Source: Patescibacteria group bacterium
GTDB taxonomy: Bacteria > Patescibacteriota > UBA1384 > GWA2-35-9 > JBASTP01
Assembly (NCBI GenBank): GCA_049274945.1
Contig: JBASTP010000002.1
Coordinates: 1,125 to 65,124 of the forward strand
Direction of reading: 5' to 3'
DNA: 64,000 nucleotides
A program made the translations under genes and the position numbers. Of the stretch, positions 9,046 through 40,400 are shown one piece after another. How positions within the stretch are numbered: the stretch's first letter is position 1; each line of letters starts with the position of its first letter. The notes under the pieces are model-generated. The model saw nothing but the letters and a program-made list of their open reading frames with translations. It did no database searches and was not told the DNA's origin.

Positions 9046-9215
9046 GGAGTGGCGAGAGGTACCAGCCGAGGGCGGGTTGCTAGCGCCACAGGAAGGGAGC
9101 ATCCAGCAGCGAACGAAGTGAGCTCTCTAGGAGCGACCGCTCATGCCCCGCGGAGCGGGGTCCGAAGGATAGAGCGCACGCCCCGAGGCGGCACCCGAGC
9201 CAGGACCCGGATAAC
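9046..9215. repeat. GC-rich modular repeat family, copy A (core gttgctagcgccacaggaag ... atagagcgcacgccccgaggcggcacccgagccaggacccgg)
   Basis: Shares 20-mer and ~40-mer blocks with 22195..22340 and 40262..40400. Confidence 0.65.
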
Positions 9216-9377
9216 ACAAACGGAAAGCGAACACCCACTTGACCCCGCTTCGCTAACGCTCCGGCGGGATCTTCGGCCTTCCCTATAAAACCAGATGAAC
9301 TTGGGAAGGCCTTGACAAACCTATAGCCATGTATCATAAACAAAGTAGAAGTCATGAGAGAGGGGAAAGGAAGACTA

Positions 9378-10484
9378 ATGCCTAAAGAAGATCTCGGGGA
9401 AACATTTGCCGTCATTCGCGTGGTTGGCGTTGGCGGTTCGGGGAGTAACGCGATCAACCGCATGATTACGTCTAAAATGCGCGGCGTTGAATTTATTACC
9501 GTAAACACCGACGCCCAGGCCCTCACCTACTCAAGCGCCCAAACCCGCATCCAAATCGGCAAGGAAACCACCAGGGGGCTCGGCGCTGGCTCGGATATCG
9601 AACTCGGCCGCAAGTCAATTGAAGAAAATAAAGAAGAAGTGTACGAAGCGCTCAAGGGTTCTGATATGGTGTTTGTAACCTATGGCGCGGGCGGCGGCAC
9701 CGGCACCGGCGCTGGGCCCATGGTTGCCCAAATTGCCAAAGAACTCGGCGCGCTCACCGTTGGGGTATGTACTAAACCATTTAGTTTTGAAGGATTGCGG
9801 CGCAAAAAGGTGGCGGACTTAGGCATTGAAGAACTGGCCGACAAAGTGGATACCTTAATTGTCATCCCTAACGACCGACTGCTCCAGGTGATCGACAAGA
9901 AAACCTCGCTCTGGGACGCCTTCGGCGTGGTGGACGATGTGCTCCGCCAGGGCGTGCAGGGTATTTCCGACCTGATTACCCTCCACGGTATTATCAACGT
10001 TGACTTTGCCGACGTGCGGGCAATCATGGCTGACGCCGGTTCCGCGCTTATGGGCATTGGCCGCGCCTCCGGCGACAACCGGGCAATCGAAGCTGCCAAG
10101 AGTGCGATCGATTCGCCCCTGCTGGAACTCTCAATCGACGGCGCCAAGGGCATTCTCTTTAACATCACCGGCGGGCCGGACCTTTCCATGTACGAGGTAG
10201 ATGAAGCCGCCAAAACCATTACCGAGGCAGCCGATGCCGACGCCAACATTATCTTCGGCGCGATTATCGACGAGGCCATGGCTGGCGAGATCAAAATCAC
10301 CGTGATCGCTACCGGCTTTGAGACCGAAGGCAAACCGCTCAAGAAAACCGTTGAGCAGCCGGAACGGCTCGGCACGCCGAGCTTTGAACGGGAAAGTTTC
10401 GCACCGGCGGCCGCCGACGCCGCGCGAGAAGAAGAGGAATCAGAACTCGAAATCCCTGCCTTTATCAGAAGGAAGTTGAAATAA
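9378..10484 (+). CDS. ftsZ: cell division protein FtsZ
   Basis: [25 protein letters not shown] tubulin signature; GGAAAGGAAG RBS before ATG 9378. Confidence 0.95.
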
Positions 10485-10495
10485 TAGGTACTCTC

Positions 10496-10984
10496 TTGGC
10501 TCCAAAAGACACATACACAAAACTTATCGAGCTTCTTGATCAACATGGGGCTCAGTATCGACTGATCGATCATCCACCAGAAGGGCGGACAGAACTGGTC
10601 AGCCCAATGCGCGGACACGACATCTCTCGGGCAGCGAAGTGTATGATCTTGATGGTAAAGATCGGAAAAAAAGATAAAAAGTTTGTTCTAGGTGTCATTC
10701 CGGGCAACGCGAGAATAAGCTTTAACGCCGTCAAAGCGCTATTTGGCGGAACTTATATTTCGTTCGCATCTCCAGATATTGCCGAAAGGCTCGCGGGAAG
10801 TGTTGCAGGTACGGTCCTTCCATTCTCCTTTGACCCAGAGTTAATCTTGATCGTTGATCCATCGTTGAGAAAGAACGAATTTATTTACTTCAATGCGGCA
10901 CGCTTGGATCGGTCCGTTGAACTGAAAACAAGTGATTATCTGAAAATCGCCAACCCGCGCTTCGAACCGATCGCCGAACAATAA
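10496..10984 (+). CDS. YbaK/ProX-type aminoacyl-tRNA deacylase
   Basis: YbaK/EbsC domain pattern (KCMILMVKIG...VLGVIPG). Confidence 0.7.
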   Translation: MAPKDTYTKLIELLDQHGAQYRLIDHPPEGRTELVSPMRGHDISRAAKCMILMVKIGKKDKKFVLGVIPGNARISFNAVKALFGGTYISFASPDIAERLAGSVAGTVLPFSFDPELILIVDPSLRKNEFIYFNAARLDRSVELKTSDYLKIANPRFEPIAEQ

Positions 10985-11008
10985 TTTTGCCTGCAGCATT
11001 GGCTAACA

Positions 11009-11037
11009 TCTATATTCCACTCCGGGAGTGGAATATA
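11009..11037. repeat. REP-like palindromic hairpin (ctatattccactccgggagtggaatatag) immediately 3' of RAYT gene
   Basis: Perfect 29-bp palindrome. Confidence 0.8.
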
Positions 11038-11039
11038 GA

Positions 11040-11717
11040 TTATTCTTCAAATGTAAGGTGATCGACAGTTTTGATTTTTTTCTGATAATCTGAAAAATCG
11101 CTCACGAACCGCTCATAATCTGAGGGTTTTTTGAACTGTTTAAGGACGATCTCTTTGTCGCAAATGTTCTGATCAGTGCCGCCCAGATATTCACGCAAAG
11201 AAGACCATGGATACTGACGAAGTGCACCCATATCTTTGACTAGGTAAGAATCTAGGGGATTGAGGTGAATATACCGAGAAAGGTGCAGCAGTTGGCTATC
11301 ATTCTCAACCCTCACCGCCTTAAATTGTCCCTGGACAAGCGGGCCAATCCGCTCGTGTTTGGTGTTGAAGTAGCGGCTAAAACTGTCCTGCCAGTGCGCC
11401 ACGAATCGTGATATACCATTGTTCTGTAACTGCTTAAGGAGGAAGTGGAAATGGTTAGGCATTAAACAAAATGCAACAATGCCAATCAACCGGTCATTGG
11501 TAGTGAGGAGATTATCCCAAATTTTTTCTCGTTGCGTTAGTGCGAAATTCTTGAACCGAGAGTATTTAATTGTCTGGTTCGCAAACTGATAGAACTTGAT
11601 TAACTCAATCGCCCGCGCATAATCCCGACTATCCAAAAAAATAGGTTGCTTATTAACACCTCGATTGAAAATATGGTAGTACTGACCCTCGACTAACGGC
11701 GTTTTTCTATAAGGCAC
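11040..11717 (-). CDS. IS200-like / REP-associated tyrosine transposase (RAYT, HuH Y1 family)
   Basis: HIFNRG and CLMPNHFHFLL (HuH) motifs; AT-rich relative to surroundings; flanked by REP hairpins. Confidence 0.85.
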   Translation of the reverse strand: MPYRKTPLVEGQYYHIFNRGVNKQPIFLDSRDYARAIELIKFYQFANQTIKYSRFKNFALTQREKIWDNLLTTNDRLIGIVAFCLMPNHFHFLLKQLQNNGISRFVAHWQDSFSRYFNTKHERIGPLVQGQFKAVRVENDSQLLHLSRYIHLNPLDSYLVKDMGALRQYPWSSLREYLGGTDQNICDKEIVLKQFKKPSDYERFVSDFSDYQKKIKTVDHLTFEE

Positions 11718-11755
11718 TTTTTAGTAAAATAGTCCGAATTCCCCGAAGTGTCAAG

Positions 11756-11776
11756 GGTATTCCACTCCCGGAGTGG
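11756..11776. repeat. REP-like hairpin copy (ggtattccactcccggagtgg), 5' flank of RAYT gene
   Basis: Matches REP core; loop variant ccc-gg. Confidence 0.65.
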
Positions 11777-11970
11777 TCATAGTGGTCACCATCAATTCAA
11801 TGAGCGTAAATCCCTTTATTTTCCTCATCACCATCATCTCCTCGTGCGGGATGCTTATATTCTAACGCGAAACCCAATTGTTATCCACCCCAAGAGGTCA
11901 GGGTTGACTTAGAACTCCTGATGAGGTATATTTTTAGCGAAATCCTGAACAACCGACGAAAGGAACGACC

Positions 11971-12690
11971 ATGGACGAAGAGATTAGATCGGGATTGCTG
12001 GTTCGCTATCCAGATACCAAACTCAACTGCGGAGAACAACTCGACTACTTGTTCCGGGAATGGTCGGAACGGCTTCCCAATAGCCTTCGGGTGACAGATA
12101 CCGTGGAGTACACCTTCTGGACGCCGAACCGCAATCTATACCTCACGGATATTAGAGAGGGATTAAAACCTTGGTGGAAAAATAGCTACCCTGCTAACAC
12201 GTTTATCGAGCTACACGTGCGCCCTGATGGCAGGCCCTGGGGTAATGCCCTCATAGCAATCGAAGCAATTGCCCTGATCGGTAATCAAGCCGATAATCGA
12301 CAATCACACTTTCTCTCTGGTGGTACGATAATCGGCCACGCCAAGCTACTGCGGTTCGAGGACAGGGATGAACTGTTTTTCTCCGGTGTGGTGGCGCTGA
12401 CAGAAACAGCTGCCGGTTTGGAAATCTTGTCACCGAATGACCTGATCGGGCAAGTGCGGGTATGTATAGACAAGATTAACGAGGTCTGCGGGAAAGCGGC
12501 AATACCAAAGAGCGCGATCGATTTGATCGAAGTTTTTCTCCCACGACGGCACTACCCGTTTGCCAGTACCATTGTTGAAATGCTCTGGCGCAAGTTTAGG
12601 GCACCCCAAATCAGCTGCCGCCAGGTGGACGGACTGTTCATGGATGGCCTGCTCGTCGAAATCCGCCCGCACGCCGTGGTGTGGAAGTGA
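11971..12690 (+). CDS. hypothetical protein (239 aa)
   Basis: ORF track; no recognised motif. Confidence 0.5.
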   Translation: MDEEIRSGLLVRYPDTKLNCGEQLDYLFREWSERLPNSLRVTDTVEYTFWTPNRNLYLTDIREGLKPWWKNSYPANTFIELHVRPDGRPWGNALIAIEAIALIGNQADNRQSHFLSGGTIIGHAKLLRFEDRDELFFSGVVALTETAAGLEILSPNDLIGQVRVCIDKINEVCGKAAIPKSAIDLIEVFLPRRHYPFASTIVEMLWRKFRAPQISCRQVDGLFMDGLLVEIRPHAVVWK

Positions 12691-12695
12691 TTTAG

Positions 12696-12896
12696 ATGAA
12701 ATATTCAATGATTTATTACAACCAACACGCCAGTGGCGATTGCCCTGAATGCAACGGGACAGGGATTATCCGCTTTTTCTTTGAGAACGATTCGACCGAG
12801 GATGCACCGTGTCCACTGTGCTTCCCCGATGAGAAATCCCTCTACGACGCAAAACTCAATCGTTTTTATGCACCGTCGGCCAACGATGAAGCATAG
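12696..12896 (+). CDS. small zinc-ribbon-like protein (CxxC...CxxC, 66 aa)
   Basis: CPECNG ... CPLC; 6 nt after preceding gene. Confidence 0.45.
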   Translation: MKYSMIYYNQHASGDCPECNGTGIIRFFFENDSTEDAPCPLCFPDEKSLYDAKLNRFYAPSANDEA

Positions 12897-12910
12897 CGAT
12901 GCTTGGCCAG

Positions 12911-12938
12911 AGCAGGGAAACCTGCTCTTTTGTTTTGG
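12911..12938 (+). terminator. intrinsic terminator (agagcagg-gaaa-cctgctct + TTTTGTTTT)
   Basis: GC stem plus U-run after 66-aa gene. Confidence 0.65.
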
Positions 12939-13073
12939 GCAATATATCACTTGATATCACCTCCGAGGTGTGAAGGTTTAGGGTGGTCAGTCACGACAAT
13001 GGCTTTTATTGGTAGGGTATATGTGGTATCATTTGGCTATCGGACCTGAAAAACAAGGAGAAGTGAAACATTT

Positions 13074-13346
13074 ATGCCCAAAGAACTGAAAGCACCGCCT
13101 TACGATCATCCAGCAACAGCTAAAAGGCGCCTTGCGCAGATGAAACAGGAAGAGAAGATTAACAACGATGCGCTCGAAGCAAACAAAGCAACCTGGGCAA
13201 AGCAGTACGCTGGCAAGTGGGTAGCCATTCACCAAGGCAAGGTGGTTGCAGCTCGAACATCTAAACAAAGGCTGAACAACTGGCTTGACACTGATCAAGG
13301 GCAACGGCTAACTGGTGACGTTCTGCTACACGAGTTCCTTAAGTAA
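13074..13346 (+). CDS. hypothetical protein (90 aa), DUF5678-like (GKWVAIHQGKVVA)
   Basis: ORF track; motif resemblance only. Confidence 0.45.
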   Translation: MPKELKAPPYDHPATAKRRLAQMKQEEKINNDALEANKATWAKQYAGKWVAIHQGKVVAARTSKQRLNNWLDTDQGQRLTGDVLLHEFLK

Positions 13347-13368
13347 CAAAGGGAACACAACTTATCAC

Positions 13369-13397
13369 GCTCATAAGAGCAGGTACGTCCTGCTCTT
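13369..13397 (+). terminator. intrinsic terminator (aagagcagg-tacgt-cctgctctt + TTGTTT)
   Basis: Hairpin plus U-run. Confidence 0.65.
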
Positions 13398-13653
13398 TTG
13401 TTTATCCTCTATAAACGAACAATATACGAACTGATTAAGCAGTTTAACGTATCAAGTTTAAGGGTTCAAAGTGAGATTTTGCGATGCGACAGCGTTGTAA
13501 AATCTCGCTGTATTTTACGACACGCATTATGTCGTGTTGTAAAATGACATATTTTGCGACATCGCCGAAGGCGCAATGTGCTCATCGCGCTTCGCGCGAT
13601 AATTTGCGACATTCACAGTGGATAACCTGTGGAAATGGCTTCACAGCAACCCC

Positions 13654-13707
13654 TTGACAACACTACATGTTGTGCGTAGCGTAGAGTGTGGACCCTAGAT
13701 ATAGTGA
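13654..13707 (+). promoter_or_regulatory. nrdR-nrdJ promoter (TTGACA-17-TAGCGT) overlapped by two NrdR-box-like palindromes at 13660..13675 and 13692..13707
   Basis: ACACTACATGTTGTGC and ACCCTAGATATAGTGA resemble the NrdR box consensus acaCwAtATaTwGtgt; 32-bp spacing. Confidence 0.55.
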
Positions 13708-13726
13708 TTTATAAGGAATTTGCGCC

Positions 13727-14182
13727 ATGATTTGCCCCAAATGTAAATCGGAACAGGTCTATGTCATCGACAGCCGGGAGATGGACGAGAAAACCATCCG
13801 CCGCCGGCGCGAGTGCGAGGAATGCAAGCAGCGATTTACCACCTTTGAGCGGATCGATCCGGTAAGTTTTGCAATCGTCAAGAAAGATGGCACGAGCGAA
13901 CCCTACGATCGCACCAAAATCGTGACCGGCATTAAGCGAGCGCTTGAAAAACGCCCGGTGAACGATGAAAGCATTGAAGCCATGGTAGACCGGATCGAGT
14001 GGAAGCTGGTTGAGAGCGGCGAGCAAGAGATTGCATCGAGCAAAATCGGCAACCTGGTGATCCGAGAGTTACGCGCCGTGGATGAGGTTGGCTACTTGCG
14101 GTTTGCTTCGGTTTACCGCGCCTTCCGGAGCCTCGAGGCATTTTCGAAAGAAATGAAACGATTTGAGAAAACGAAAGCATAA
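13727..14182 (+). CDS. nrdR: transcriptional repressor NrdR
   Basis: CPKC...CEEC zinc ribbon plus ATP-cone. Confidence 0.92.
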   Translation: MICPKCKSEQVYVIDSREMDEKTIRRRRECEECKQRFTTFERIDPVSFAIVKKDGTSEPYDRTKIVTGIKRALEKRPVNDESIEAMVDRIEWKLVESGEQEIASSKIGNLVIRELRAVDEVGYLRFASVYRAFRSLEAFSKEMKRFEKTKA

Positions 14183-14219
14183 CGTAATATATAACACTAG
14201 TAAGTTAGGGGGTAATTTC

Positions 14220-17200
14220 ATGGCAAAGAAGGGGAAAAGCTCGCAAGCGGAGCGGATCGAGTTACCAAAGGTCATAATTGACCTGGGCAGCAGTCGAAAC
14301 ACTAACGATAAGCGGTTTGATCTGGTTGCCGGGGTAGTCGCCAAGGAGCCTACCGGCAAAGGGTTGCAGTTTAACCGGGTATTTTCCAAAGCGGGGATCC
14401 ACCCGTTCGATGAAATTACCTGGGAAAAACGCGACGCCAGAATCATCGACGAGAAGGGTAAGGTAATGTTCGAGCAGCTCGGGGTTGAGGTGCCGGAGTT
14501 CTGGACCCAACTTGCCACCGACATTGCCACCTCAAAATACTTCCGCAAAAAAGGCCTGCCTACCCCCGAGGGCCGCGAGGTCTCGGCCAAACAGCTGATT
14601 ACCCGCGTTGCCCATTCTATCCGGAAAGCAGGGGAGAGCCTGGGCAGCTACTTTACAACCACCGACGACGCCGAGGTCTTTGAGGCAGAGTTAACGAGTC
14701 TGCTGATTAACCAACGAGTTGCCTTTAACTCACCTGTGTGGTTCAACTGCGGCCTCTACCAAACATATGGCATTGAAGGGAGCGGCGGCAACTGGTTCTG
14801 GAACCCCGAAACCCGCCAGGTGGAAGAAACCGCCAATGCCTACCAGTACCCCCAGTGCTCGGCGTGCTTTATCCAATCGGTCTCCGACGATCTCCGTTCG
14901 ATTTTTGAGCTCGTCAAAAACGAGGCGATGCTCTTTAAGTACGGCTCTGGCACCGGCACCAACTTTAGTAACCTCCGTTCCAAGGGCGAGGAACTCTCGG
15001 GTGGCGGCAAATCCTCGGGCGTGATGAGCTTTTTGAAGGTACTCGACGCCGGCGCCGGCTCGATCAAATCCGGCGGCACCACCCGGCGCGCCGCCAAGAT
15101 GGTGGTACTCGACATGGACCACCCCGAGATAGTTGATTTTATCGATTGGAAGGTCAAGGAAGAGGAAAAAGCGCGCCTGCTGATTGCCCACGGCGGCTAC
15201 CCGGCTGATTTTAACGGCGAGGCCTACCAAACCGTTTCCGGCCAGAACTCCAACAACTCGGTGCGCATTCCCGACGAGTTCATGAAAGCCTATCTCGACA
15301 ATAAGGAATGGGCCACCCGCTGGCGCACCGATGGCAATGTGGCCCAAACCTACCAAGCCAAAGAACTGATGGACCGAATTGCCCAGGCCGCCTGGCGCTC
15401 GGCTGACCCGGGCGTTCAGTTCGACACCACGATCCAGGAATGGAACCCGGTGGCCAACTCCGATCGCATCAACGCCACCAACCCGTGCTCTGAATTCGTG
15501 TTCATCGACGACACCGCCTGCAACCTGGCGTCGTTCAATCTGATGAAGTTTACGGCGCCCGACGGCAGCTTTAAGGTAGACGAGTTCCGCCACGCCGTCC
15601 GCATCCTGATTACCGCCATGGAAATCCTGGTGGATTTTGCGAGCTACCCGACTAAACAAATCGCCGAGCGCTCCCACCAATTCCGGCCGCTCGGCCTAGG
15701 CTACGCCAATTTGGGGACGCTCCTCATGATCAACGGCATTCCCTACGACAGCCCCGAGGGCCGCGCGTGGGCCGGGGCGATTACCGCTATTTTGCACTGC
15801 GATGCCTACGCCACGTCGGCCGAGCTCGCCAGTCAGGTGGGGCCGTTCGAAGCCTACCAAGCCAACCGCGAGCCGTTCCAAAAAGTGATCCACAAACACG
15901 CCGAAGCGGCCTACAGACTTGATGCCACGGCGTGCCCCAAGCCGCTCATCGAAGCAGCCCACCAGGCGGCCGACCAAATGGTGGCGCTCGGGCAGGGGCA
16001 CGGCTACCGCAACGCCCAGGTTACCAACATCGCGCCAACCGGCACAATCGCGCTTTTAATGGACTGCGACACCACCGGCGTTGAACCCGATTTTGCCCTC
16101 GTGAAGTACAAAAAGCTCGCCGGCGGCGGATTCTTTAAGATTATCAACCAGTCGGTGCCGCGGGCCCTGCGAAAACTGGGCTACAATGCCCGCGAGATCG
16201 ACGAGATTAACCGCTACATTGTTGGCTCCCAAACCCTCGACGGCGTGCCCCACATCAACCGAGAAACCCTCAAAGCCAAAGGGCTGACCGACGAGGAGGT
16301 GGACAGCGTCAACCGGGTGCTGCCCTCGGTGTTCGATTTTTCAAGCGCCTTTGGCGAGTGGACGCTCGGCCAAGCCTGCCTTACCCGGCTCGGTATCAAG
16401 GGCGCCAATGTACTCCTAGAACTTGGCTTCACCGCACAGCAGATCGAGCAGGCCGGCACCTTTACCTGTGGCATGATGACGATCGAAGGCGCCCCCGCCG
16501 TGAAGCCAGCGCACCTGCCGGTGTTCGACTGTGCCAACAAAAACGGCCGCCACGGCGTGCGCTATATTCAAGCAATGGGCCACGTGCGCATGATGGCCGC
16601 GGTCCAGCCGTTCATTTCCGGCGCGATCAGCAAAACCGTAAATCTGCCCGAGGACGCTACGGTGGAGGATATTAAACAAGTTTATATGGAATCGTGGAAA
16701 CAGGGTTTGAAAGCCCTGTCGGTGTATCGCGACAACTCCAAAATGAGCCAACCGCTCTCCACGGTATCCGAGGCGCGGAAGGAGCGCGATAACGATAGTA
16801 GCCAGGGATCAGGAGTCAGTAGCCAGGAGACACCAGACGCTCAGTTCCGCCCCCAGCGCAGGCGGCTGCCGGACGAACGCAAATCAATCACCCACAAGTT
16901 CACGATCGCCGGCCACGACGGCTACCTTACCATAGGCCTGTTTGAGGATGGCTCGCCGGGCGAGATTTTCATCCGCATGGCGAAGGAAGGCTCAACCATT
17001 GCGGGCCTCGTGGATAGCTTTGCCATTGCCGTTTCCATGGGGTTGCAGTACGGCGTGCCCCTGGACACGATTGTTTCCAAGTTCGCCCACGTGCGGTTCG
17101 ATCCATCGGGGTTCACCACCCACCCGAAAATCAGGATCGCCAAATCACTGATTGACTACATTGCCCGCTACCTGGCCTACAAATTTCTGCCCAAGGAACG

Positions 17201-17462
17201 CTGGCACGAGGTGGGGTTGAATGGCGACGATGCCAGTAGCCAGGCATCAGTAGCCAGTAGCCAGGAGATAGGTAAACCAGTGGATCAACCGACCATTTTT
17301 GAGGCGCCACAAAAACCAGAACTAACCACCGGGCCAACCGCGCAAACCAAACTCGATCCAATAGGGGACTCGCCGAGCTGTGGCGAATGCGGCGGCATGA
17401 TGACGCGCTCCGGCAGCTGCTACAAGTGTATGAACTGCGGCTCAACGAGTGGATGCTCCTAG
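14220..17462 (+). CDS. nrdJ: class II (adenosylcobalamin-dependent) ribonucleotide reductase
   Basis: NPCSEF active-site region, C-terminal CGECGG...CYKCMNCG zinc ribbon; RBS AGGGGGT before ATG 14220; two Ser/Gln-rich low-complexity inserts. Confidence 0.9.
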   Translation: MAKKGKSSQAERIELPKVIIDLGSSRNTNDKRFDLVAGVVAKEPTGKGLQFNRVFSKAGIHPFDEITWEKRDARIIDEKGKVMFEQLGVEVPEFWTQLATDIATSKYFRKKGLPTPEGREVSAKQLITRVAHSIRKAGESLGSYFTTTDDAEVFEAELTSLLINQRVAFNSPVWFNCGLYQTYGIEGSGGNWFWNPETRQVEETANAYQYPQCSACFIQSVSDDLRSIFELVKNEAMLFKYGSGTGTNFSNLRSKGEELSGGGKSSGVMSFLKVLDAGAGSIKSGGTTRRAAKMVVLDMDHPEIVDFIDWKVKEEEKARLLIAHGGYPADFNGEAYQTVSGQNSNNSVRIPDEFMKAYLDNKEWATRWRTDGNVAQTYQAKELMDRIAQAAWRSADPGVQFDTTIQEWNPVANSDRINATNPCSEFVFIDDTACNLASFNLMKFTAPDGSFKVDEFRHAVRILITAMEILVDFASYPTKQIAERSHQFRPLGLGYANLGTLLMINGIPYDSPEGRAWAGAITAILHCDAYATSAELASQVGPFEAYQANREPFQKVIHKHAEAAYRLDATACPKPLIEAAHQAADQMVALGQGHGYRNAQVTNIAPTGTIALLMDCDTTGVEPDFALVKYKKLAGGGFFKIINQSVPRALRKLGYNAREIDEINRYIVGSQTLDGVPHINRETLKAKGLTDEEVDSVNRVLPSVFDFSSAFGEWTLGQACLTRLGIKGANVLLELGFTAQQIEQAGTFTCGMMTIEGAPAVKPAHLPVFDCANKNGRHGVRYIQAMGHVRMMAAVQPFISGAISKTVNLPEDATVEDIKQVYMESWKQGLKALSVYRDNSKMSQPLSTVSEARKERDNDSSQGSGVSSQETPDAQFRPQRRRLPDERKSITHKFTIAGHDGYLTIGLFEDGSPGEIFIRMAKEGSTIAGLVDSFAIAVSMGLQYGVPLDTIVSKFAHVRFDPSGFTTHPKIRIAKSLIDYIARYLAYKFLPKERWHEVGLNGDDASSQASVASSQEIGKPVDQPTIFEAPQKPELTTGPTAQTKLDPIGDSPSCGECGGMMTRSGSCYKCMNCGSTSGCS

Positions 17463-17480
17463 AAAACTTAATGAAGGACT

Positions 17481-17567
17481 ACAGCCACAGATATTTGATC
17501 CACTGATTGACACTGATACACTCCATGGTATGATCTGTGGTTATCAGTGGATTAACATCAGTGGTTG
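17481..17567. repeat. intergenic palindromic repeat, copy 2
   Basis: agccacagatatttgatccactgattgacactgat...atctgtggttatcagtggattaacatcagtggttg. Confidence 0.8.
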
Positions 17568-17592
17568 TTTGACTACCTTAATTTAGAAAATT

Positions 17593-18033
17593 ATGCGCAA
17601 ATCCCAAAAGATTGTTTTAATTTCGGTTGTGGTGCTCGTGTCGCTGGGCCTCGTGAGCAACTTTTCGGGTTTCGCAAGCAATTCAGGTGCCAGGCGGCAG
17701 CAACCCCGGAACGTCAAACCTAGAAACGATATTCAGCGCCGAGAGCCAACCAGCGCCGATCTTAAAGTTACCCGTGCACCCGATAACAAAACGGTTAACT
17801 ACCAGGGCTTCGAGGGTAAAACCGCGCTCGAGTTGCTCCGGCTCGTTGCCCACGTAGAGACCAAAAACTTCGGCGAGCTGGGCGATATGGTAACGGAAAT
17901 CGACGGTATTACCGCTGACAAAGGCAACTTTTGGGCGCTCTACGTGAACGGCAAGCAATCTGAAGTCGGGGCAAGTAGTTACAAAACCAAGCCAGGGGAG
18001 AGCGTGGAGTGGCGGTATGAGGAAATCAAATGA
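17593..18033 (+). CDS. membrane-anchored DUF4430 domain protein (transcobalamin-like fold; putative B12 binding)
   Basis: N-terminal TM; GNFWALYVNGKQSEVGASSYKTKPGESVEWRY matches DUF4430 pattern. Confidence 0.65.
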   Translation: MRKSQKIVLISVVVLVSLGLVSNFSGFASNSGARRQQPRNVKPRNDIQRREPTSADLKVTRAPDNKTVNYQGFEGKTALELLRLVAHVETKNFGELGDMVTEIDGITADKGNFWALYVNGKQSEVGASSYKTKPGESVEWRYEEIK

Positions 18034-18038
18034 TGACA

Positions 18039-18122
18039 CAACCACTGATATCTGATCCACTGATAACCACAGATTCTTGTGGCCTATCAGTGATTATCTG
18101 TGGCATAAATCTGTGGTTGTAG
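18039..18122. repeat. intergenic palindromic repeat, copy 3
   Basis: caaccactgatatctgatccactgataaccacagat...tgattatctgtggcataaatctgtggttg. Confidence 0.8.
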
Positions 18123-18131
18123 CCCTTCATT

Positions 18132-18635
18132 ATGACGTATCTCCTCATCTTCCTCGGTCTCGCCGCGCGCCTGCTGCCTCACTCCGCCAATTTCACCCCG
18201 GTGGGCGCGATTGGGCTTTTTGGCGGCGCCCAGCTGCCCAAACGGTTGGCGCTTGCCCTGCCGCTCATTGCGGTGTTCATTTCTGATCTTATCATCGGCT
18301 TTTATACCTGGCAGGTGATGCTATCGGTATACCTTGGTTTCCTGGTGTATGGCCTAGCTGGCCTGTGGATCCGGCAGGACTATTCGATCAAGCGCATGGT
18401 GGCTGGCACGCTCGGCGCCTCGGTATTTTTTTTCCTGCTTACCAACGCCGCGGTTTGGGCCTTTACGCCGCTCTACCCCCACACCCTTACTGGCCTTAGC
18501 GAGAGCTACCTGGCCGCGCTGCCATTTTTTCGCAACTCACTGCTGGGTGATTTCTTCTATACCGGAGCATTCTTCGGGGTCTACGAGTTGACACGATTTT
18601 GGGTTGCGGATAGAGTAAGTTTTGCAAGGAGGTGA
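18132..18635 (+). CDS. polytopic membrane protein, putative ECF-transporter S (substrate-capture) component
   Basis: 5-6 TM helices, LLPHSANFTPVGAIGLFGG N-terminal motif common in ECF S components. Confidence 0.5.
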   Translation: MTYLLIFLGLAARLLPHSANFTPVGAIGLFGGAQLPKRLALALPLIAVFISDLIIGFYTWQVMLSVYLGFLVYGLAGLWIRQDYSIKRMVAGTLGASVFFFLLTNAAVWAFTPLYPHTLTGLSESYLAALPFFRNSLLGDFFYTGAFFGVYELTRFWVADRVSFARR

Positions 18636-18636
18636 C

Positions 18637-18945: not shown

Positions 18946-18947
18946 CC

Positions 18948-19900: not shown

Positions 19901-20411
19901 GGGGCGAAATGAGCGGGGATGGTTGAAAAACGGGCCGGGTCGCTGGGAGGAAGAGGCTGGTCAACGCCCAGCGAACCCGGACACCGCTGCCGAAACAGAA
20001 GTGCGGGCGGTGGCACCCGCCGACAGGCTTGCGCCCATCGTAGAGCACTCAAACGAGGAGAGGATTTGTGCGGTGCTTGAAGGCCCCTTTCAGGCCCCAG
20101 GTCAAAAAACATCCTTGCGGACGCACCTCTCGGGGGATTTTTCTTACCCCCTACCTGACTTGATTGCTGGATAGCGGCTCGCGGTCAAATTCCGCAAAGC
20201 CGCCATCCGTGCAGCCGCTCACTACAGATCTCTTCTCATACTAAGTCTGACCGCCCAGACTATAACCCTCCTGCCTTGCGGCAGGGTGCGCAGGCAGCAT
20301 GAGAGGCGTAGATTGAGCGCCACCAATTAGCAGGTTGTTCTCGTTCAAGCAAGAATGATCGTACTACGGCCATTTGACAGCTGTCAAGCCCTTGCACTAC
20401 GCTCAAGGTGT

Positions 20412-21735: not shown

Positions 21736-22158
21736 TTACTTTTTTACTTTTTTGGGTTCGAACTTGAGCGAGCACGAGTTAATGCAGTACCTCATTCCCG
21801 AAGCCGGCTTGCCGTCGGACATACTCGAGGGGCCGTCGGGGAAAACGTGGCCTAAATGCGCGCCGCAGTGTTTGCACATTACCTCGATGCGCGTCATGCC
21901 GTGGGAGGTATCGGTGGCGGTGGTGATGTTCTCGGCGACCGCCGGATCGGTAAAGCTGGGCCAACCGGTGCCGGATTCGAATTTGGCGTCGGAGGCAAAC
22001 AAGGGAGCGTTACACACCAAACAATGGTACATGCCATCATCGTGATTGTTCCAATATTTGCCGGAAAACGCCCCTTCGGTACCTTTTTCCTGGGTTACCC
22101 GATACTCGTCCGGGGATAGTTTCTTTTTGAGGTCTGCTTTGTTTAATTTTGTGGTCAT
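21736..22158 (-). CDS. msrB: peptide methionine sulfoxide reductase MsrB
   Basis: CLVCNAPLF...[12 protein letters not shown]. Confidence 0.92.
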
Positions 22159-22194
22159 TTTTCTTCTATATTACTGACTTATTATTAATTAGCG

Positions 22195-22340
22195 ACGGGT
22201 GGCGAGAGGTGCGAGGGGACGGGCGGGTTGCTAGCCTGCCTGCCGGTAGGCAGGCGCCACAGGAAGCCCGTTATGGCCGACGCGCTCCTGTAGAGCGCAC
22301 GCCCGAGGCGGTACCTGAGCCAGGACCCGCCGCTAAAAAA
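22195..22340. repeat. GC-rich modular repeat family, copy B (with 22-bp palindromic insertion tgcctgccggtaggcagg)
   Basis: gtggcgagaggt...gggcgggttgctagc[insert]gccacaggaag...tagagcgcacgcccgaggcggtacctgagccaggacccg. Confidence 0.65.
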
Positions 22341-22350: not shown

Positions 22351-22851
22351 CTAAATGTGGCAGGTTGCCTTAATGCCGCGCTTGGCGTAATACTGTTGGT
22401 GATAATCTTCGGCTTCGAAAAACCCCTTGGCCGGCACGATTTGGGTAACAATTTTTTGAGTCAACTCTTTCTGGTACGCGTCGCGGGATTTTTCGGCAGC
22501 GTTCTTTTGTTCGGCATTTTTGTAAAAAATCACCGAACGATACTGGCTGCCAACGTCAACCCCTTGGCGATTAGGGGTAGTAGCGTTATGATTTTTCCAG
22601 AAGATATTCAGGAGCGCTTCGTAGGAAATTATTTTGGGATCATAGGTCACTTCCACCGCCTCGGCGTGGCCCGTGGCATCAGCGCAGACTTGCTCGTAAC
22701 TCGGATTTTTTACGCTGCCGCCGCTGTAGCCAACCCGCGTTGACTTGACCCCTTTTTGCATGCGGAAAATCTCCTCCACACCCCAAAAACACCCGGCGGC
22801 AAAGGTGGCGGTAGAAAGCTTTCCAAGTGGCTGTTTTGGCATAGTACTCAT
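22351..22851 (-). CDS. msrA: peptide methionine sulfoxide reductase MsrA
   Basis: ATFAAGCFWGVE active site. Confidence 0.92.
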   Translation of the reverse strand: MSTMPKQPLGKLSTATFAAGCFWGVEEIFRMQKGVKSTRVGYSGGSVKNPSYEQVCADATGHAEAVEVTYDPKIISYEALLNIFWKNHNATTPNRQGVDVGSQYRSVIFYKNAEQKNAAEKSRDAYQKELTQKIVTQIVPAKGFFEAEDYHQQYYAKRGIKATCHI

Positions 22852-31196: not shown

Positions 31197-31277
31197 TAAA
31201 GACTCAGAGCGCAATCATCCAGGTACGCAACAGGTTTGTGTACCTGTTTTTTTAAGGGGACGCACCCGGAGTGCCCA

Positions 31278-31300
31278 GGGTATTCCACTCCCGGAGTGGA
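31278..31300. repeat. REP-like hairpin copy (ggtattccactcccggagtggaa)
   Basis: Same core as 11009..11037. Confidence 0.7.
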
Positions 31301-31351
31301 AAGTGGACAGGAGCTGTTTAAGGAAGAAGGGTAAAAAAAAGACCCACGGAC

Positions 31352-32821: not shown

Positions 32822-33367
32822 CTCCTTTGAGTTAGGTTGTCAAACAGACGGCAGTGCCAGTATACCTTAAAACTTTTGATATGTCAAGGTAAATACGGAG
32901 TAAAATTAGGTTCAAAACAGGGGACTGGCGTGAAAAATGGCGAGGTATGGGAGTCGGGTAGGGGAGTCTCGCCGATTTTTTGAGGGGATGTCACCGGCTG
33001 ACGAAAGTAGGGTATATACACGCCCACATTTTGCGATGGCCGGGCAGGGGAGGACGTTGTAAAATGTGGGCCTGATTTTGCGTCATCACTCTTGAACCTG
33101 ATTTGATGACGCAAAATCAACATTGTACGACCTACCATCTCCATCTCTTTTAAGCCCCTTCACCAACCGATCGGGCAGATCGCGGATCATCGTTTTATTA
33201 TTTCCCTACCCTCCCCTGCATCCCCGGCGCTACCGGCAGTATTCCCCCGCTAAAAGGTGGGTGATAGCGCAATAAACACCCCTACTCCGCTATCCCCTGT
33301 CTCTATAAAAAAATAACAGGTTAGATAACCTGTAGTTGCCTACCTGTTTCTAACCTGTTGGAACCTG

Positions 33368-33658
33368 CTATTCCTGCCCTAAGGCCTGCTCGGCCTCTAG
33401 GAGATCTCTCCAGGTGAACGAATGGACAACGCCGGGCGCTGTAACTAAGTCAACCGGCATGCCGCTCGGAATGGTTGGCTTTTTGTCGCCTTTCGCGGCT
33501 GCCTCCGATGCATGTTCAATGGCATGGATGATAACGCTCACACAATGTAGGGCAACCTGCGTTGGCTCGGCGTGATCGGGTTCAAGGGAATCTGCCCCGA
33601 TTGCCATAGCATGCACATCAATTTCCACCCGGATACGGTTTTTGTGTCGTTTTGTCAT
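33368..33658 (-). CDS. hypothetical small protein (96 aa)
   Basis: ORF; 4-nt overlap (ATGA) with upstream gene. Confidence 0.45.
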   Translation of the reverse strand: MTKRHKNRIRVEIDVHAMAIGADSLEPDHAEPTQVALHCVSVIIHAIEHASEAAAKGDKKPTIPSGMPVDLVTAPGVVHSFTWRDLLEAEQALGQE

Positions 33659-33993
33659 TTCCCTACCTCCTGGATTTTCGTCACCGGTTGACTATGGCGC
33701 AAATCCAACTCCCCTACTTTTGTAACCAAGTATCTATCAAACACCTCGGCCATTTTGCGGTCAGTATTCAGCACCTCGAACACAGCCATATTCTCTGACG
33801 GATGCCGTATATTCAGGAAAAAGGCGCGAAAATATATGGAGTCGCCTAACCGTTCCACCCAACGGCTATCTCGCTGGATTTCGTTGAGCAGCTGGACAAC
33901 ATTCGCTGTCGATCCGGTGACGATGTGCCGCTTAATATCACTCGATTGAATCTTTCGCCGAACAGTGTGGAAAAGAGTATGAAGCGCGCCCAC
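33655..33993 (-). CDS. hypothetical small protein (112 aa)
   Basis: ORF; translationally coupled with 33368..33658. Confidence 0.45.
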   Translation of the reverse strand: MGALHTLFHTVRRKIQSSDIKRHIVTGSTANVVQLLNEIQRDSRWVERLGDSIYFRAFFLNIRHPSENMAVFEVLNTDRKMAEVFDRYLVTKVGELDLRHSQPVTKIQEVGK

Positions 33994-34039
33994 CTAAACC
34001 ACCTCAATTCTTCAAGAACTATGAGAACACTATACCAGA

Positions 34040-36655: not shown

Positions 36656-36677
36656 AACTTAACGACTCAATATTCGG

Positions 36678-37256
36678 TCAATGCTTTGCGCTAATGACAT
36701 TCTCCAGCGCCGCGAAGGTTGATTCTTCATTGCGGGGTACCACAATCGTCAGTTCATCCCCTGGCCGGGCCCTGAAGTACGTCACCGAGGCCAGGAGCAC
36801 ACTGTAGCGCTTACCGGATGCCACCACCTCGTAACGGCCGCCGGATTCTTCGAGTTTCCCAATCAGTTTCTTGCGATCAACCGGGCCGATTTGCTTGTAA
36901 ATAAAGGTGCCATCGCCGCCCACCGTTAACTTAAGAATGTCGCCAGGCACCAGCTTGCTCTTGCTGGCGTAGTTAGGTGGTACCGGGTAGCGCTTGCCGC
37001 CCGACGCCACCATCATCTCGCCATCGAACACTCCCTCGATTACCTTGGCCTCGTCGCCCTCTTTCTGGTGGAGCTGTTTAGCCTTTTCGCCATACAGGCC
37101 ACCAAAGAGCAGCGCTCTTGCCTGGCGAATCTGATTTTCAGCCGAATCAAGCAGCTGCCTCACACGATCGAGTTCCACTTTAGGGGCAGTGTTTTGCTTT
37201 TCTATTTTCGTTTGGGTTTTAGATGGTGATTTCGTCTTTGTTTGTTTGGTAGCCAT
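36678..37256 (-). CDS. hypothetical protein (192 aa) with internal duplicated GKRY...PGD..L motif
   Basis: ORF between the two ATPase paralogs. Confidence 0.5.
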   Translation of the reverse strand: MATKQTKTKSPSKTQTKIEKQNTAPKVELDRVRQLLDSAENQIRQARALLFGGLYGEKAKQLHQKEGDEAKVIEGVFDGEMMVASGGKRYPVPPNYASKSKLVPGDILKLTVGGDGTFIYKQIGPVDRKKLIGKLEESGGRYEVVASGKRYSVLLASVTYFRARPGDELTIVVPRNEESTFAALENVISAKH

Positions 37257-37265
37257 TGATATTTT

Positions 37266-39731
37266 TTAAACTTTTACTAATGGTTCGTTACTCCCTGTTG
37301 GCACACTCGCCGGTTTGGTACGCTCGGTAAGCTCGCTCTCGATCATCTTGCGGTCCTTGCCGTAGGAAAGCCTCGAAAGTTGCCTCGTTGCCTCTGCCAT
37401 TTGCTTATCCTTAACGACTGGCGATTTGATCCCGCGCATCGAGAAGGGTTTGCTGGGGGTGCCGTCAATCAGCAGTTTAACATATGTCGAGAACCGGTCA
37501 AGGTTCGCAAGGTCGTCAATCGACACCCCCGGGAACTCCTTGACCATAAACTCGGCGTCAGACGCGCCGATCCGGTAACTGATAAGCGTGCCGGCGTTGC
37601 CGACCACTGAATCGCGGATCTTTTCGGTGAGCTGGGCAATATATTGGTTGGTGATATGGAGGCCAATGTGGTACTTGCGCGCTTCAGAGAGAATGGTGGC
37701 AAAGCTGTCGGTTGTGAAATTTTGGAACTCGTCAACGTAGACGTAAAAATCTCTGCGCTCTTCCTCGGGGGTGTCGGCCCGCGAAAACGCGGCGGTCTGG
37801 AGCTTGGCAATAATAATCATGCCCAAAAGGTAGCTATTCATCTCGCCGATCTTGCCCTTGGACAGGTTAACCAGCAGGATTTTGCGATCGTCCATTAGCT
37901 TGCGCATATCAAACCCTGATTTAGCCTGGCCAATGATGTTCCGCATTAAGTCGTTCGTCATAAATCGGCCGAATTTGGAAATAAAATAGTTGTACATTTC
38001 GGACTTATGGAAATCGGCCGTTTTGGCGAGCTGCTGCTCCCAAAAACTCCGCACCACGGGATCGGTCACAAAACTCACCGCGCGTTCGCGGAAACTGTCG
38101 TCGGTAAAGAGGCGCGGAATCTCAATGAGCGAGCCGCCTTCGGGCAGGTTCATCACCGTGAGGGCGGCATTGCGGCCCCAGTGCTCGAATTGGGGCCCTA
38201 CAATGCCGGTGCGGTTGGGATCGTACAGCTTGTAGAAAATCTCGATCCATTCCTGGATCAAAAAGTCCTTTTCCTCGGGCCGCTTCCACTCCAGGAGGTT
38301 CAGCCCAACCGGCCGCTCGGTGTCTGAGGGGTCAAACAGAATTACATCTTCTGCCCGCTCCTTGGGAATCTTGGCGAGAATCGATTCAATGGCATCGCCC
38401 AGCGGATCAATAAAGCAGCAGCCGGCGCCCGAACGAATATCCTGCTCGATCATGTTTTCAAACAGCGTCGTCTTGCCTACGCCAGTTTTGCCGATCATGA
38501 AAATGTGGCGGAGCCGATCAGGCGGCTTAATGCGCACCTCGTTGGTCTCGCCCCGATAGACCGACTCGCCAATCACCGTGCCCTCCCGGGGCAGGTTTGG
38601 CGGCGGCGCCAAGACTTTGCTCATCATCCAGCGGATGTTCGGGGTGTCGGTGTAGCGATTGGGCAGGTGAAAGAGCGAGGCGAGCTCCTCGGAGTTCATA
38701 ATCAGTGACTTGGCCCTGTCAAAAGTCCGGAAAATGAAATCTGTGGCAACTTGGGCCGAATCTCGGGCAATAATCGGCTTAAAGCCGTTCCAGGCCGGTG
38801 TGGCAAACTGGGAGAAGGCCGAAACAATGTTGTCGCGGTGGGCCTGGGCGGTCATGGCATCCGGGCCAACCGCCACAATGCGGATCACGGTCTTGAACCC
38901 GGGCTTACTCCCCTTCTCGTTGAACGCCTTCATGAGATCCTCCTGTACCGGTGTCAGCCGCCAGGATTTGTTGCCGCTGCTCTCGGGCCCGGCCCTGCCT
39001 GCAGCCGAGGCCGCTACCCCGCCCGAGAACGCCTCAAAAAGCTCGTGGACCACCCGCATGGTTGGTGAGCGGTAGATGTAGCCGGTTTTGCCCTCGAGCA
39101 CGTGTTTGGCGGCAATCGCCGGGTGCACCCGCCAGCCCTCATCGAGCGGTTTAATGAGAATCTGAATCGCCGCGGCTGATTTATCGCCCAGTTTGGCAAA
39201 GGCGCCGGTCAGGTTATTGATCGGATCTGCCTCCAGATATTTGAAGGTGCGGATCGGAAAAATGAACCGCTTGGTGAACTCGAGGGTTGCGGCGGCGATC
39301 ATGCCCTTGGTTTGGAAAATGTTGTGCCCGGTCGCCCGCTCAACCGAAACCTTGGGGAAAAAACTGTAGAGCTGCCGCTCTAAAAGACTCGCCAGGTGGC
39401 CCGGGCAGGAAACGTAAAAAGAAACCAAATTACCCTCAACCACCATCTCAAAACACATAATATCCTGCTCGCCGGTCAGCTTGTGGGCTAAATCGCGTTT
39501 GAGAGTGGAAGATAACGAGGCAAAAAATTGTTCAGTGGGCGCGAGCGCCTCCTTAAAATCCTTAGGTTGGTTGGCATTAGCATCATCCTGCTGACGGAAA
39601 ATCTCTTTTGGCATGGTCACGAGAAATGTGACTTGATCAACAATATGGTGGGCCTTGTGCTTGCGAACATGGCGCCAAACCACAAAAAGCCCAATCGCCC
39701 AGAGTACAAGGAAGAGGAGAAGGTAAATCAT
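37266..39731 (-). CDS. membrane-anchored DUF87/VirB4/HerA-like P-loop ATPase paralog (821 aa)
   Basis: HIFMIGKTGVGKTT, FIDPLGD, FYVYVDEFQNF, ARKYHIGLHITNQY; same architecture as 34040..36655. Confidence 0.8.
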   Translation of the reverse strand: MIYLLLFLVLWAIGLFVVWRHVRKHKAHHIVDQVTFLVTMPKEIFRQQDDANANQPKDFKEALAPTEQFFASLSSTLKRDLAHKLTGEQDIMCFEMVVEGNLVSFYVSCPGHLASLLERQLYSFFPKVSVERATGHNIFQTKGMIAAATLEFTKRFIFPIRTFKYLEADPINNLTGAFAKLGDKSAAAIQILIKPLDEGWRVHPAIAAKHVLEGKTGYIYRSPTMRVVHELFEAFSGGVAASAAGRAGPESSGNKSWRLTPVQEDLMKAFNEKGSKPGFKTVIRIVAVGPDAMTAQAHRDNIVSAFSQFATPAWNGFKPIIARDSAQVATDFIFRTFDRAKSLIMNSEELASLFHLPNRYTDTPNIRWMMSKVLAPPPNLPREGTVIGESVYRGETNEVRIKPPDRLRHIFMIGKTGVGKTTLFENMIEQDIRSGAGCCFIDPLGDAIESILAKIPKERAEDVILFDPSDTERPVGLNLLEWKRPEEKDFLIQEWIEIFYKLYDPNRTGIVGPQFEHWGRNAALTVMNLPEGGSLIEIPRLFTDDSFRERAVSFVTDPVVRSFWEQQLAKTADFHKSEMYNYFISKFGRFMTNDLMRNIIGQAKSGFDMRKLMDDRKILLVNLSKGKIGEMNSYLLGMIIIAKLQTAAFSRADTPEEERRDFYVYVDEFQNFTTDSFATILSEARKYHIGLHITNQYIAQLTEKIRDSVVGNAGTLISYRIGASDAEFMVKEFPGVSIDDLANLDRFSTYVKLLIDGTPSKPFSMRGIKSPVVKDKQMAEATRQLSRLSYGKDRKMIESELTERTKPASVPTGSNEPLVKV

Positions 39732-40141
39732 GCTACTTGCTCCTTTTGCCCTAGGTCGTGGTGGGCCTCAATATGCGCGGGTCTCAGTTGGTTAACCCCT
39801 GCTTGAATATCTGCAGGGCCCTTTGCTTTATTCATAAGCTCTCGAATACTCCGCTCGGCGTCATCAGGATGAGAAATGTCTAGAATTTGCTTTCCCACCT
39901 GCCTAGCTGGCGCGCTAACCACTTGCTGTACCTGATCTGGAAGATCTTTGATAGTATCTTGAACGGCCTCGAGTCGCTCTTTTGTTGCAGCGGCTTCAGC
40001 TTGGTGGTCTGGTTGCCCCTGGACTACCTCAGGTTGGGTAACCTGGGACGGTTTAGACACCTCAAAAGAAGCAGCTACTTTGGCGGCTAATTCCTGCTCA
40101 GTTCCTCCCCCTGCTCCTGGTTGTGGTACTGCACTAGGCAA
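39728..40141 (-). CDS. hypothetical protein (137 aa), start-stop overlap (ATGA) with downstream ATPase
   Basis: ORF track. Confidence 0.45.
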   Translation of the reverse strand: MPSAVPQPGAGGGTEQELAAKVAASFEVSKPSQVTQPEVVQGQPDHQAEAAATKERLEAVQDTIKDLPDQVQQVVSAPARQVGKQILDISHPDDAERSIRELMNKAKGPADIQAGVNQLRPAHIEAHHDLGQKEQVA

Positions 40142-40261
40142 AACAGCCCTCCCTTTTGCTATTAGAGCCTACCTAGTACTCAAAAATACCAGCTTTTGAT
40201 CGGGGTGTCAAAGAAAATAATAGAAAAATTCGATCATATAATGCCGTAGCTTGCCTGATGA

Positions 40262-40400
40262 GGGGCAGTTGCTAGCGCCACAGGAAGCGAAGCGCTCCTG
40301 CCCCGCGGAGCTGCCTGGACGACGGGACCCATCGAAGATGGGCAGGAGTTACCAAGCAGCGGAGCGGAAGGTCCCGCCGTAGGCGGGATAGAGTGCTGCC
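40262..40400. repeat. GC-rich modular repeat family, copy C (more diverged)
   Basis: Identical 20-mer gttgctagcgccacaggaag; ccccgcggagc and gggatagag..gccccgag blocks. Confidence 0.55.

Follow-up and report, generated by a model that had tools for sequence, protein, structure and literature searches.

Palindromic GC-rich repeats in the gene spacers of a Candidatus Berkelbacteria genus: a probable lineage-restricted, MITE-like family of interspersed DNA

Introduction

ERIC elements are imperfect palindromes of about 127 bp that lie in transcribed intergenic regions in either orientation; they are classed with the miniature inverted-repeat transposable elements (MITEs) and can alter the fate of an mRNA when transcribed together with it (PMC3184786). 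The pneumococcal BOX, RUP and SPRITE repeats consist of modular sub-elements with extensive secondary structure, occur in one species and its closest relative, and have been judged parasitic with slow transposition (PMC3049150). REP elements and the BIMEs and REPINs built from them are GC-rich extragenic imperfect palindromes, which go together with a single-copy RAYT-like gene and form vertically inherited, genome-specific sequence populations (PMC3116915, PMC3337134); REP elements carry GTAG and CGTC tags (PMC3733652). The Correia elements of Neisseria and other MITEs are non-coding, 100-160 bp long, have pairing ends and show presence/absence and length variants (PMC3184786). Here we describe a family of three GC-rich non-coding repeats of 146-186 bp, called copies A, B and C, in the gene spacers of a 64-kb stretch of DNA (the window) from a Patescibacteria group bacterium (GCA_049274945.1, contig JBASTP010000002.1, positions 1,125 to 65,124). 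All positions without a locus label refer to this window, in which the element sense of the three copies is the + strand.

The family is a sequence member of none of ERIC, BOX/RUP/SPRITE, Correia or REP/BIME, and is closest to these in behaviour. With ERIC it shares the imperfect palindrome in transcribed intergenic regions and the occurrence in either orientation. Size variants are a further common feature; those of ERIC reportedly arise from internal insertions and deletions, a finding ascribed to Wilson and Sharp in 2006. Unlike ERIC, to which it has no sequence relationship, the family has a GC content of 62-71%, resides in a candidate phyla radiation (CPR) genome, has an apparently low copy number and is less conserved at its termini than in its core. 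It resembles the pneumococcal repeats in its modules, its extensive structure and its restriction to one species and the closest relative; BOX is a tandem boxA-boxB(n)-boxC array, whereas here hairpins are nested within one long hairpin, and there is no homology. Like the REP-derived systems, it consists of GC-rich extragenic palindromes in a genome with a single-copy RAYT-like gene, and its sequences are vertically inherited and genome-specific. Unlike them, it forms a composite hairpin of 126-186 nt and not a REP of 20-40 nt or a plain doublet of REPs; other hairpins flank the RAYT gene, and there is no GTAG/CGTC tag. Size, lack of coding capacity, pairing ends, presence/absence and length variants are shared with Correia elements and other MITEs, in contrast to which no TA duplication can be demonstrated, no terminal inverted repeat is family-wide and no parent insertion sequence was identified. 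Our literature searches returned no account of interspersed palindromic repeats in CPR bacteria. We consider it probable that these are palindromic interspersed DNA repeats of the MITE/REP/ERIC kind, modular and restricted to one lineage, which reside in the short, AT-rich gene spacers of one Candidatus Berkelbacteria genus.

The repeat family in the window

Copy A (9045-9210, +) lies between ftsA and ftsZ, copy B (22190-22335, +) between msrA and msrB and copy C (40238-40423, +) just after rplL. All three were seen by reading the sequence, at the places given in an earlier note on this DNA, and were recovered by a covariance model that was built from the family and run with filters off over the 64 kb. 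The model scored copy B at 95.2 bits, copy A at 66.3 bits (E=2e-13) and copy C at 26.2 bits (E about 1e-3), and the next match in the window, at 16 bits, is noise. The earlier note had located copy C correctly, but its palindrome is larger than the extent of 40262-40400 given there.

The conserved core of the family is a 20-mer, GTTGCTAGCGCCACAGGAAG, which leads from the 5′ strand of stem P4 through the asymmetric bulge AGCGCCAC into the 5′ strand of stem P5 (stems are described below). It is present without a mismatch in copies A (9076-9095, +) and C (40268-40287, +), and by chance none would be expected in the window, even at 3 mismatches. In copy B the 20-mer occurs as two parts, GTTGCTAGC (22227-22235) and GCCACAGGAAG (22256-22266). 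A hairpin, CTGCCTGCCGGTAGGCAGGC (22236-22255, +), splits them cleanly, as had been noticed before; it is 20 nt long and not 19 nt, and has a perfect 7-bp stem (GCCTGCC/GGCAGGC) and the loop GGTA. The insertion is found neither in copies A and C nor in the ortholog of copy B in a sister genome (B′, see below), and cmsearch places it as one insert within the conserved asymmetric bulge. Because the ortholog does not have it, the hairpin is a real lineage-specific insertion, gained recently by copy B.

A 41-nt 3′ block, ATAGAGCGCACGCCCCGAGGCGG.ACC.GAGCCAGGACCCG, is common to copies A and B only. In copy A the 3′ core and outer arm read ATAGAGCGCACGCCCCGAGGCGGCACCCGAGCCAGGACCCG (9169-9209, +); the corresponding part of copy B (22290-22329, +) has GTAGAG and one C fewer. 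Copy C, for which the whole block had been proposed, retains just the 3′ core ATAGAGTGCTGCCCCGAG (40388-40405, +). Open reading frames overlapping the three copies are spurious only, in agreement with the earlier view that none is credible, and the indels between copies are not multiples of three. The elements are small, non-coding and dispersed, with three copies of 146-186 bp in the 64 kb and further members (B′, C′ and D′) in relatives.

Filled, empty and inverted sites in related genomes

By its FtsZ, which is 97% identical to the best match, from GCA_016196985.1, the window belongs to a metagenome-assembled genome of Candidatus Berkelbacteria (CPR/Patescibacteria). Orthologous loci in relatives were fetched through FtsZ, L10 and MsrA homologues. 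Loci L018, L022 and L030 come from GCA_016196985.1, a sister species, and L019 from the conspecific genome GCA_964342885.1, which shows 97.5% nucleotide identity with the window overall.

Each of four sites is filled in some genomes and empty in others. The ftsA-ftsZ spacer (site A) is empty in L018, where it is an AT-rich stretch of 148 bp, and in the Logan relative L023, where it is 72 bp long. In L032, whose FtsZ is 96% identical, a GC-rich insert lies directly upstream of the ftsZ promoter and ends in ...CCTCGCCACCCGC, the reverse complement of the family 5′ end GGGTGGCGAGG, so that its orientation is opposite to that of copy A; this insert is cut by the contig end, was not scored by the covariance model and is assigned to the family by the end motif alone. 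The site after rplL (site C) is filled in L019 by a copy C′ with 99% identity, and is empty in L022. The msrA-msrB site (site B) is empty in L024, L025 and L031, with spacers of 53, 36 and 44 bp, respectively. In L030 it holds B′ (1597-1722), which is about 88% identical to copy B and inverted: the flanking genes of L030 match the minus strand of the window, while the element matches the plus strand, and each of the conserved flanks TAGTAGCAAT...TTTTAGCGG adjoins one end of the element in the window and the other end in L030. An additional member of the sister genome, D′ (L030 6204-6300, 22.9 bits, E about 5e-3), lies between the genes for ribonucleotide reductase and a DUF4430 protein and has the outer module only (GGGTGGCGAAG...CGAGCCAGGACCCG). 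In the window the equivalent spacer is occupied by a different palindrome (17466-17594), a member of the CCACWGAT family described below. The family has members beyond the three copies from which it had been proposed, and gain, loss, inversion and nesting of copies are all observed.

In their sequences, copies are closer to their genome-mates than to their orthologs. The 20-mer is identical across the three window copies, disregarding the insertion in copy B, while B′ has GACGCTAACGCCATAGGAAG, which differs at 4 of 20 positions. B′ and D′ share GGCGAAG where the window copies have GGCGAGAG. Such likeness would be expected if new copies had been spawned within the lineage, copies A and C being found only in the window species, and equally if copies had been homogenised by gene conversion.

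Hairpin architecture and covariation

Each copy is one long imperfect hairpin of stacked stems P1-P5. In B′ the outermost stem, P1, is GGGU-GGC/GCC-ACCC with an AGG bulge and is followed by a GA-rich internal loop. P2 consists of GGUGCC/GGUACC and GCC/GGC, followed by a GA/(C)GA loop. P3 (GGGCG/CGCCC) leads into P4, the asymmetric bulge AGCGCCAC, P5 (YAGGA/UCCUR) and a variable tip. B′ forms a single continuous hairpin, with a folding energy of -73.5 kcal/mol as RNA and -35.4 kcal/mol (z=-3.3) as DNA. The same frame is retained in the other copies, which differ from it by nested hairpins. Besides the 20-nt insert in the bulge of copy B, copy A has about 60 nt extra at the tip and copy C about 100 nt, including CCCGCCGTAGGCGGG, which resembles the insert of copy B. 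The family looks modular, since apical and outer parts were replaced or expanded by nested small hairpins.

When each element was aligned to its own reverse complement, B, B′ and C beat all 200 shuffles, which A and D′ did not. Folds compared to shuffles gave z values of -1.8 (A), -2.7 (B) and -5.2 (C), and the energies of the + and - strands were -67.6 and -70.6 kcal/mol for copy A, -75.9 and -74.3 for copy B and -96.4 and -94.1 for copy C. The pairing gtggcg...cgccac, to which the earlier note had drawn attention, is present in copies A and B, is missing in C and competes with a pairing between the 5′ and 3′ ends that is seen throughout the family. B and B′ have TAGCGRYGGGT...ACCCGCCGCTR, and GGG(A)GTGGCGA...GAGCCAGGACCCG is common to A, B, B′ and D′. 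In copy C the ends also pair, but their sequence differs (ATAATGCC...GGCATTAT). The TA...TA around B and C is part of the palindrome itself, and the empty sites of the relatives are too diverged to define junctions.

Six members were aligned by fitting them to the covariance model; C and C′ are near-duplicates in this alignment, and its outermost columns run into AT-rich flanks in copy C. In the six-member alignment 85.4% of the cells pair, and both sides have changed in 21 of 46 pairs. None of 500 shuffles reached these values, and slid controls were 33-43% paired with at most 7 such pairs. Examples of compensatory change are GGC/GCC to GCC/GGC in P1 and GGGCG/CGCCC to GGGGCAG/CUGCCCC in P3; between B and B′ two pairs have changed on both sides, one from G-C to A-U and the other from U-A to C-G. 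For three sequences alone, covariation was no different from that of shuffled controls. If selection acted on an RNA from one strand, G·U oppositions should be tolerated and A·C oppositions purged. At the paired positions we counted 11 of each, which together with the equal folding of both strands means that there is no strand-specific RNA signature.

Position relative to genes and transcription signals

The neighbouring genes had been named correctly before, and were confirmed with Pfam: FtsA (7758-9035) and FtsZ (9378-10484) at copy A, MsrB (21736-22158, minus) and MsrA (22351-22851, minus) at copy B, and L7/L12, the product of rplL (40427-40933, minus), at copy C. Copy A begins 10 nt past the ftsA stop codon (9033-9035), is sense to its flanking genes and lies about 95 nt upstream of a conserved ftsZ promoter (TTGACA near 9306). 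Copy B is placed 15 nt past the stop codon of msrA and 31 nt ahead of the start of msrB, antisense to both. Between the palindrome of copy C and the stop codon of rplL lie 3 nt; this copy is antisense to the genes and upstream of a minus-strand promoter (TTGACA-17-TATTTT, 40211-40183). Relative to the host genes the element sense is thus mixed, with A and B′ sense and B, C and D′ antisense.

A consensus scan found no sigma-70-like promoter on the element strand beside copies A, B or C, and a scan for a hairpin followed by a T-run found no terminator at these copies in either direction of transcription. T-runs precede, rather than follow, copy A and, on the minus strand, copy B. Of the attributes of an independent small-RNA gene, namely its own promoter, its own terminator and a fixed strand, these scans and the inversion between B and B′ showed none.

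Two side observations concern these neighbours. Between copy A and the ftsZ promoter there are about 90 nt more (9214-9305) that are not present in relatives and that hold a 9-bp perfect hairpin, GGCCTTCCC...GGGAAGGCC, adjoining the -35 TTGACA. The dimerisation domain of L7/L12 is preceded by an N-terminal extension, about 45 residues long and rich in Lys, Glu and Ala.

Discussion

The non-coding nature of the copies, the filled and empty sites, the inverted ortholog and the single long imperfect palindrome favour the small non-autonomous element that had been one of three suggestions in the earlier note. As to the means of spread, we infer that copies would spread or be homogenised within a genome, either by transposition in trans through some enzyme or because copies recombine with, or are gene-converted by, one another, and that an element could be inverted by recombination between its terminal inverted repeats. 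Any effect on the host would come from the hairpin, formed in single-stranded DNA or, whatever the orientation, in an mRNA transcribed through it; possible effects are a slowing of 3′ exonucleases and a separation of neighbouring transcription units.

Several points weigh against an interspersed DNA repeat of this kind. The best-conserved parts are the internal core and the unpaired bulge and not the termini, and the ends of copy C differ in sequence, while a transposase that recognises terminal repeats would predict conserved termini, which is the opposite. There is no unambiguous target-site duplication, as the TA...TA at B and C is inseparable from the palindrome, and neither a transposase nor an autonomous element bearing the same ends was seen over the window and about 66 kb of related loci. 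The known members number only six to seven and are quite diverged, which gives no indication of a recent burst. Behind the covariation counts is a model-fitted alignment of very few sequences, with C and C′ as near-duplicates, and a selected structure in RNA or single-stranded DNA would also give compensatory changes.

Such a selected structure is the core of a rival explanation, in which the copies belong to a structured non-coding RNA family, as a trans-acting small RNA or a cis-acting module, the bulge AGCGCCAC/AGGAAG and the GA loops bind a protein or ligand and copy B has gained a peripheral stem. The most conserved segments are indeed unpaired or junction nucleotides, the stems covary, copies B and C fold more stably than shuffles, and the 20-nt insertion falls within a loop, with every stem left intact. 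The insertion had been used before as an argument for RNA, a step that does not hold, since the gain of a nested hairpin is equally expected of a DNA palindrome. Copy A barely beats its shuffles. Searches with Rfam 15 gave no gathering-score match for the element in the window and eight related loci, and with the copies at E<=10 only noise was returned, so that the database check proposed earlier named no RNA family. No copy has a promoter or terminator consensus beside it, the orientation relative to host genes is mixed, and neither the equal folding of the two strands nor the 11:11 ratio of G·U to A·C points to an RNA. Moreover, B and B′ are inverted between unchanged flanks, which excludes a cis-acting role in the msrAB transcript as well as a flank-encoded promoter, as none could serve both. 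A riboswitch or leader is excluded because the host genes are functionally unrelated. We therefore regard a structured RNA family as unlikely.

A service to the host, with the hairpins acting as transcription barriers or as stabilisers of mRNA 3′ ends, has been proposed for REP/BIME and ERIC elements and would be compatible with a selfish origin. Co-transcribed repeats are reported to change mRNA stability in other bacteria (PMC3184786, PMC3049150), which speaks for such a role here, as do the long GC-rich hairpin that is formed in either orientation, the position of every copy directly past a stop codon, with A and C also upstream of the next promoter, and the presence of other palindromes in the same spacers of relatives (at the ribonucleotide reductase/DUF4430 site D′ in L030 and a CCACWGAT palindrome in the window). 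The elaborate terminators that had been suggested in the earlier note are contradicted by the absence of a U-tract after the hairpin in either direction of transcription; close relatives do with spacers of 36-148 bp without any such hairpin, and termination at copy B, inside the msrA-msrB pair, would be harmful. As the main explanation host service is unlikely, while a terminator or stabiliser role is possible as a side effect.

The remaining alternatives involve a dedicated protein. Since a RAYT-like Y1 (HUH) transposase gene (11040-11717, -) lies 1.8 kb from copy A, the copies could be REPIN-type elements that are moved as single-stranded DNA hairpins by its product. The gene is kept at the same place, downstream of ftsZ, in both species, and in the window all three copies share a strand. 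As imperfect hairpins with conserved bases outside the helix, the elements are the type of substrate recognised by HUH Y1 enzymes such as TnpA_REP (PMC3116915, PMC3337134), and a hairpin flanking the RAYT gene of L018 has one match of 14/15 to copy C. Nevertheless the RAYT genes are flanked by hairpins of a different type, TTCCACTCCSGGAGTGGAA. Of 20 comparisons of the RAYT flanks with the GC-rich elements one reached z=3, which is not significant against shuffles, so that, corrected for 20 tests, the alignments to the five elements do not rise above background. Neither GTAG nor CGTC is present as a consistent tag, the tag position reading GTAG in B only and ATAG in the others, and the CCACWGAT palindromes form a more obvious candidate REPIN population in the window. 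Judged by these comparisons a REPIN-RAYT relationship is not supported for this family, and we consider it very improbable. In a more general form, the element might be a functional structured RNA or single-stranded DNA whose bulge and GA loops are the site of a CPR-specific protein, for instance a fast-evolving RAYT-like HUH enzyme. This too is improbable; if true, it would represent a new REPIN-like replicator system in ultra-small bacteria that grows by nested mini-hairpins.

With the interspersed DNA repeat as the preferred explanation, the family represents no new kind of system and is a small, tractable case of how repeat populations persist in reduced genomes. CPR genomes are very small and gene-dense. 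In this window a single Berkelbacteria lineage has palindromic repeats of at least three different families; in shared spacers beside core genes such as ftsZ, rplL and msrAB, they turn over from one sister species to the other. In practice this bears on annotation, where such repeats should not be taken for RNA genes or riboswitches, on the assembly and binning of metagenome-assembled genomes, as repeats break contigs, and on strain typing.

Searches for related sequences

Collections of genome, metagenome and viral contigs were scanned with the pattern GTTGCTAGCN{0,30}CGCCACAGGAAG and variants of it. The scans returned chance matches in coding DNA only, with 5 matches in genome contigs against about 8 expected; they used the exact 20-mer of the window, a pattern that is too strict given the 4 of 20 positions at which B′ differs. 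The family is for this reason possibly wider than the scans show, and its absence outside this clade, as judged from them, is weakly supported. A BLAST search against plasmids and phages gave no match to the element.

Five resemblances to known RNAs were followed up and rejected. A match upstream of metK in L002, taken as a riboswitch lead, corresponds to nothing in Rfam and can be accounted for by chance. The hammerhead core CUGAUGA in copy C is in neither A nor B, and the GAAA part is missing. For a likeness to RNase P (GCCACAGRAA, GUAAGAGCGCAC) there was no RNase P match at E<=10. The B12-box likeness of GAGCCAGGACCCG was dropped, since D′ in L030 is on the opposite strand and is without a cobalamin match, and a K-turn reading of the GGC-GAGAG/CGA-GCC loop is not kept in B′ or D′. 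A true cobalamin riboswitch (RF00174, 44.4 bits) is present in L025 (9287-9410, minus), from a more distant relative, upstream of DUF4430-DUF6580 genes; at the equivalent spacers of L030 and the window no counterpart was detected.

Other repeats and genes in the window and related loci

The RAYT-like gene is described here as context, not as part of the element. Its protein matches PF01797 at 31.3 bits and NF047646 at 51.7 bits, the latter under the 80-bit cut-off of that model, and it is the sole transposase-like gene among the window proteins scanned. It is flanked by the perfect hairpins ATCTATATTCCACTCC-G-GGAGTGGAATATAGAT (11008-11040) and TATTCCACTCCCGGAGTGG (11758-11776), a hairpin type that also occurs at window positions 1005 and 31281. 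The protein of the syntenic gene in the sister genome is only 50% identical, and there the flanking hairpins lie at L018 11527-11582 and 12300-12325.

A second and far commoner intergenic family consists of arms of about 50 nt with three CCACWGAT units each, for example ACAACCACTGATATCTGATCCACTGATAACCACTGAT. An arm pairs with an inverted arm across a short spacer, with systematic T·T mismatches. Besides the palindrome at 17466-17594, members were found at 3757-3882, 18023-18133, 40930-41058, 42479-42608, 43104-43216, 43536-43646, 44594-44664, 45082-45142, 48746-48828, 50327-50450, 51066-51192, 57718-57770 and 58192-58318. With 54 motifs in the window, compared to 0-1 over about 46 kb of other species' loci, the family is species-specific. 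It has TCCACT/AGTGGA in common with the RAYT-flanking hairpins, and is a better candidate for a REPIN population than the GC-rich element.

At the rplL end of the region, a DUF6922 and AbiEii toxin-antitoxin pair (L022 1556-2444) occupies the post-rplL spacer in place of copy C, so that this spacer looks like an insertion hot spot. The neighbouring L10 has only 86% protein identity between the window (40934-41585) and L019 (1478-2130), in contrast to about 99% DNA identity over the following 5 kb, which suggests a local recombination mosaic. A gene-free stretch of 306 bp (20049-20354) lies upstream of sbcD in the window, and in L030 a GC-rich stretch of 1.1 kb without a called gene (3469-4579) lies between sbcD and a thioredoxin gene; neither stretch has an Rfam match at gathering score. 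The ribonucleotide reductase beside D′ (L030 6308-10157) contains an intein with a LAGLIDADG endonuclease domain and has at least 1282 residues, ending at the contig edge. The corresponding reading frame of the window (14163-17462) encodes 1099 aa, which is short enough that the intein may be absent. Finally, dense GC-rich repeats with a period of 9 nt (CCACCGCC and similar) lie at positions 45300-46850 within three consecutive minus-strand open reading frames (45148-45864, 45926-46582 and 46601-47908), which probably encode Gly-rich low-complexity proteins.

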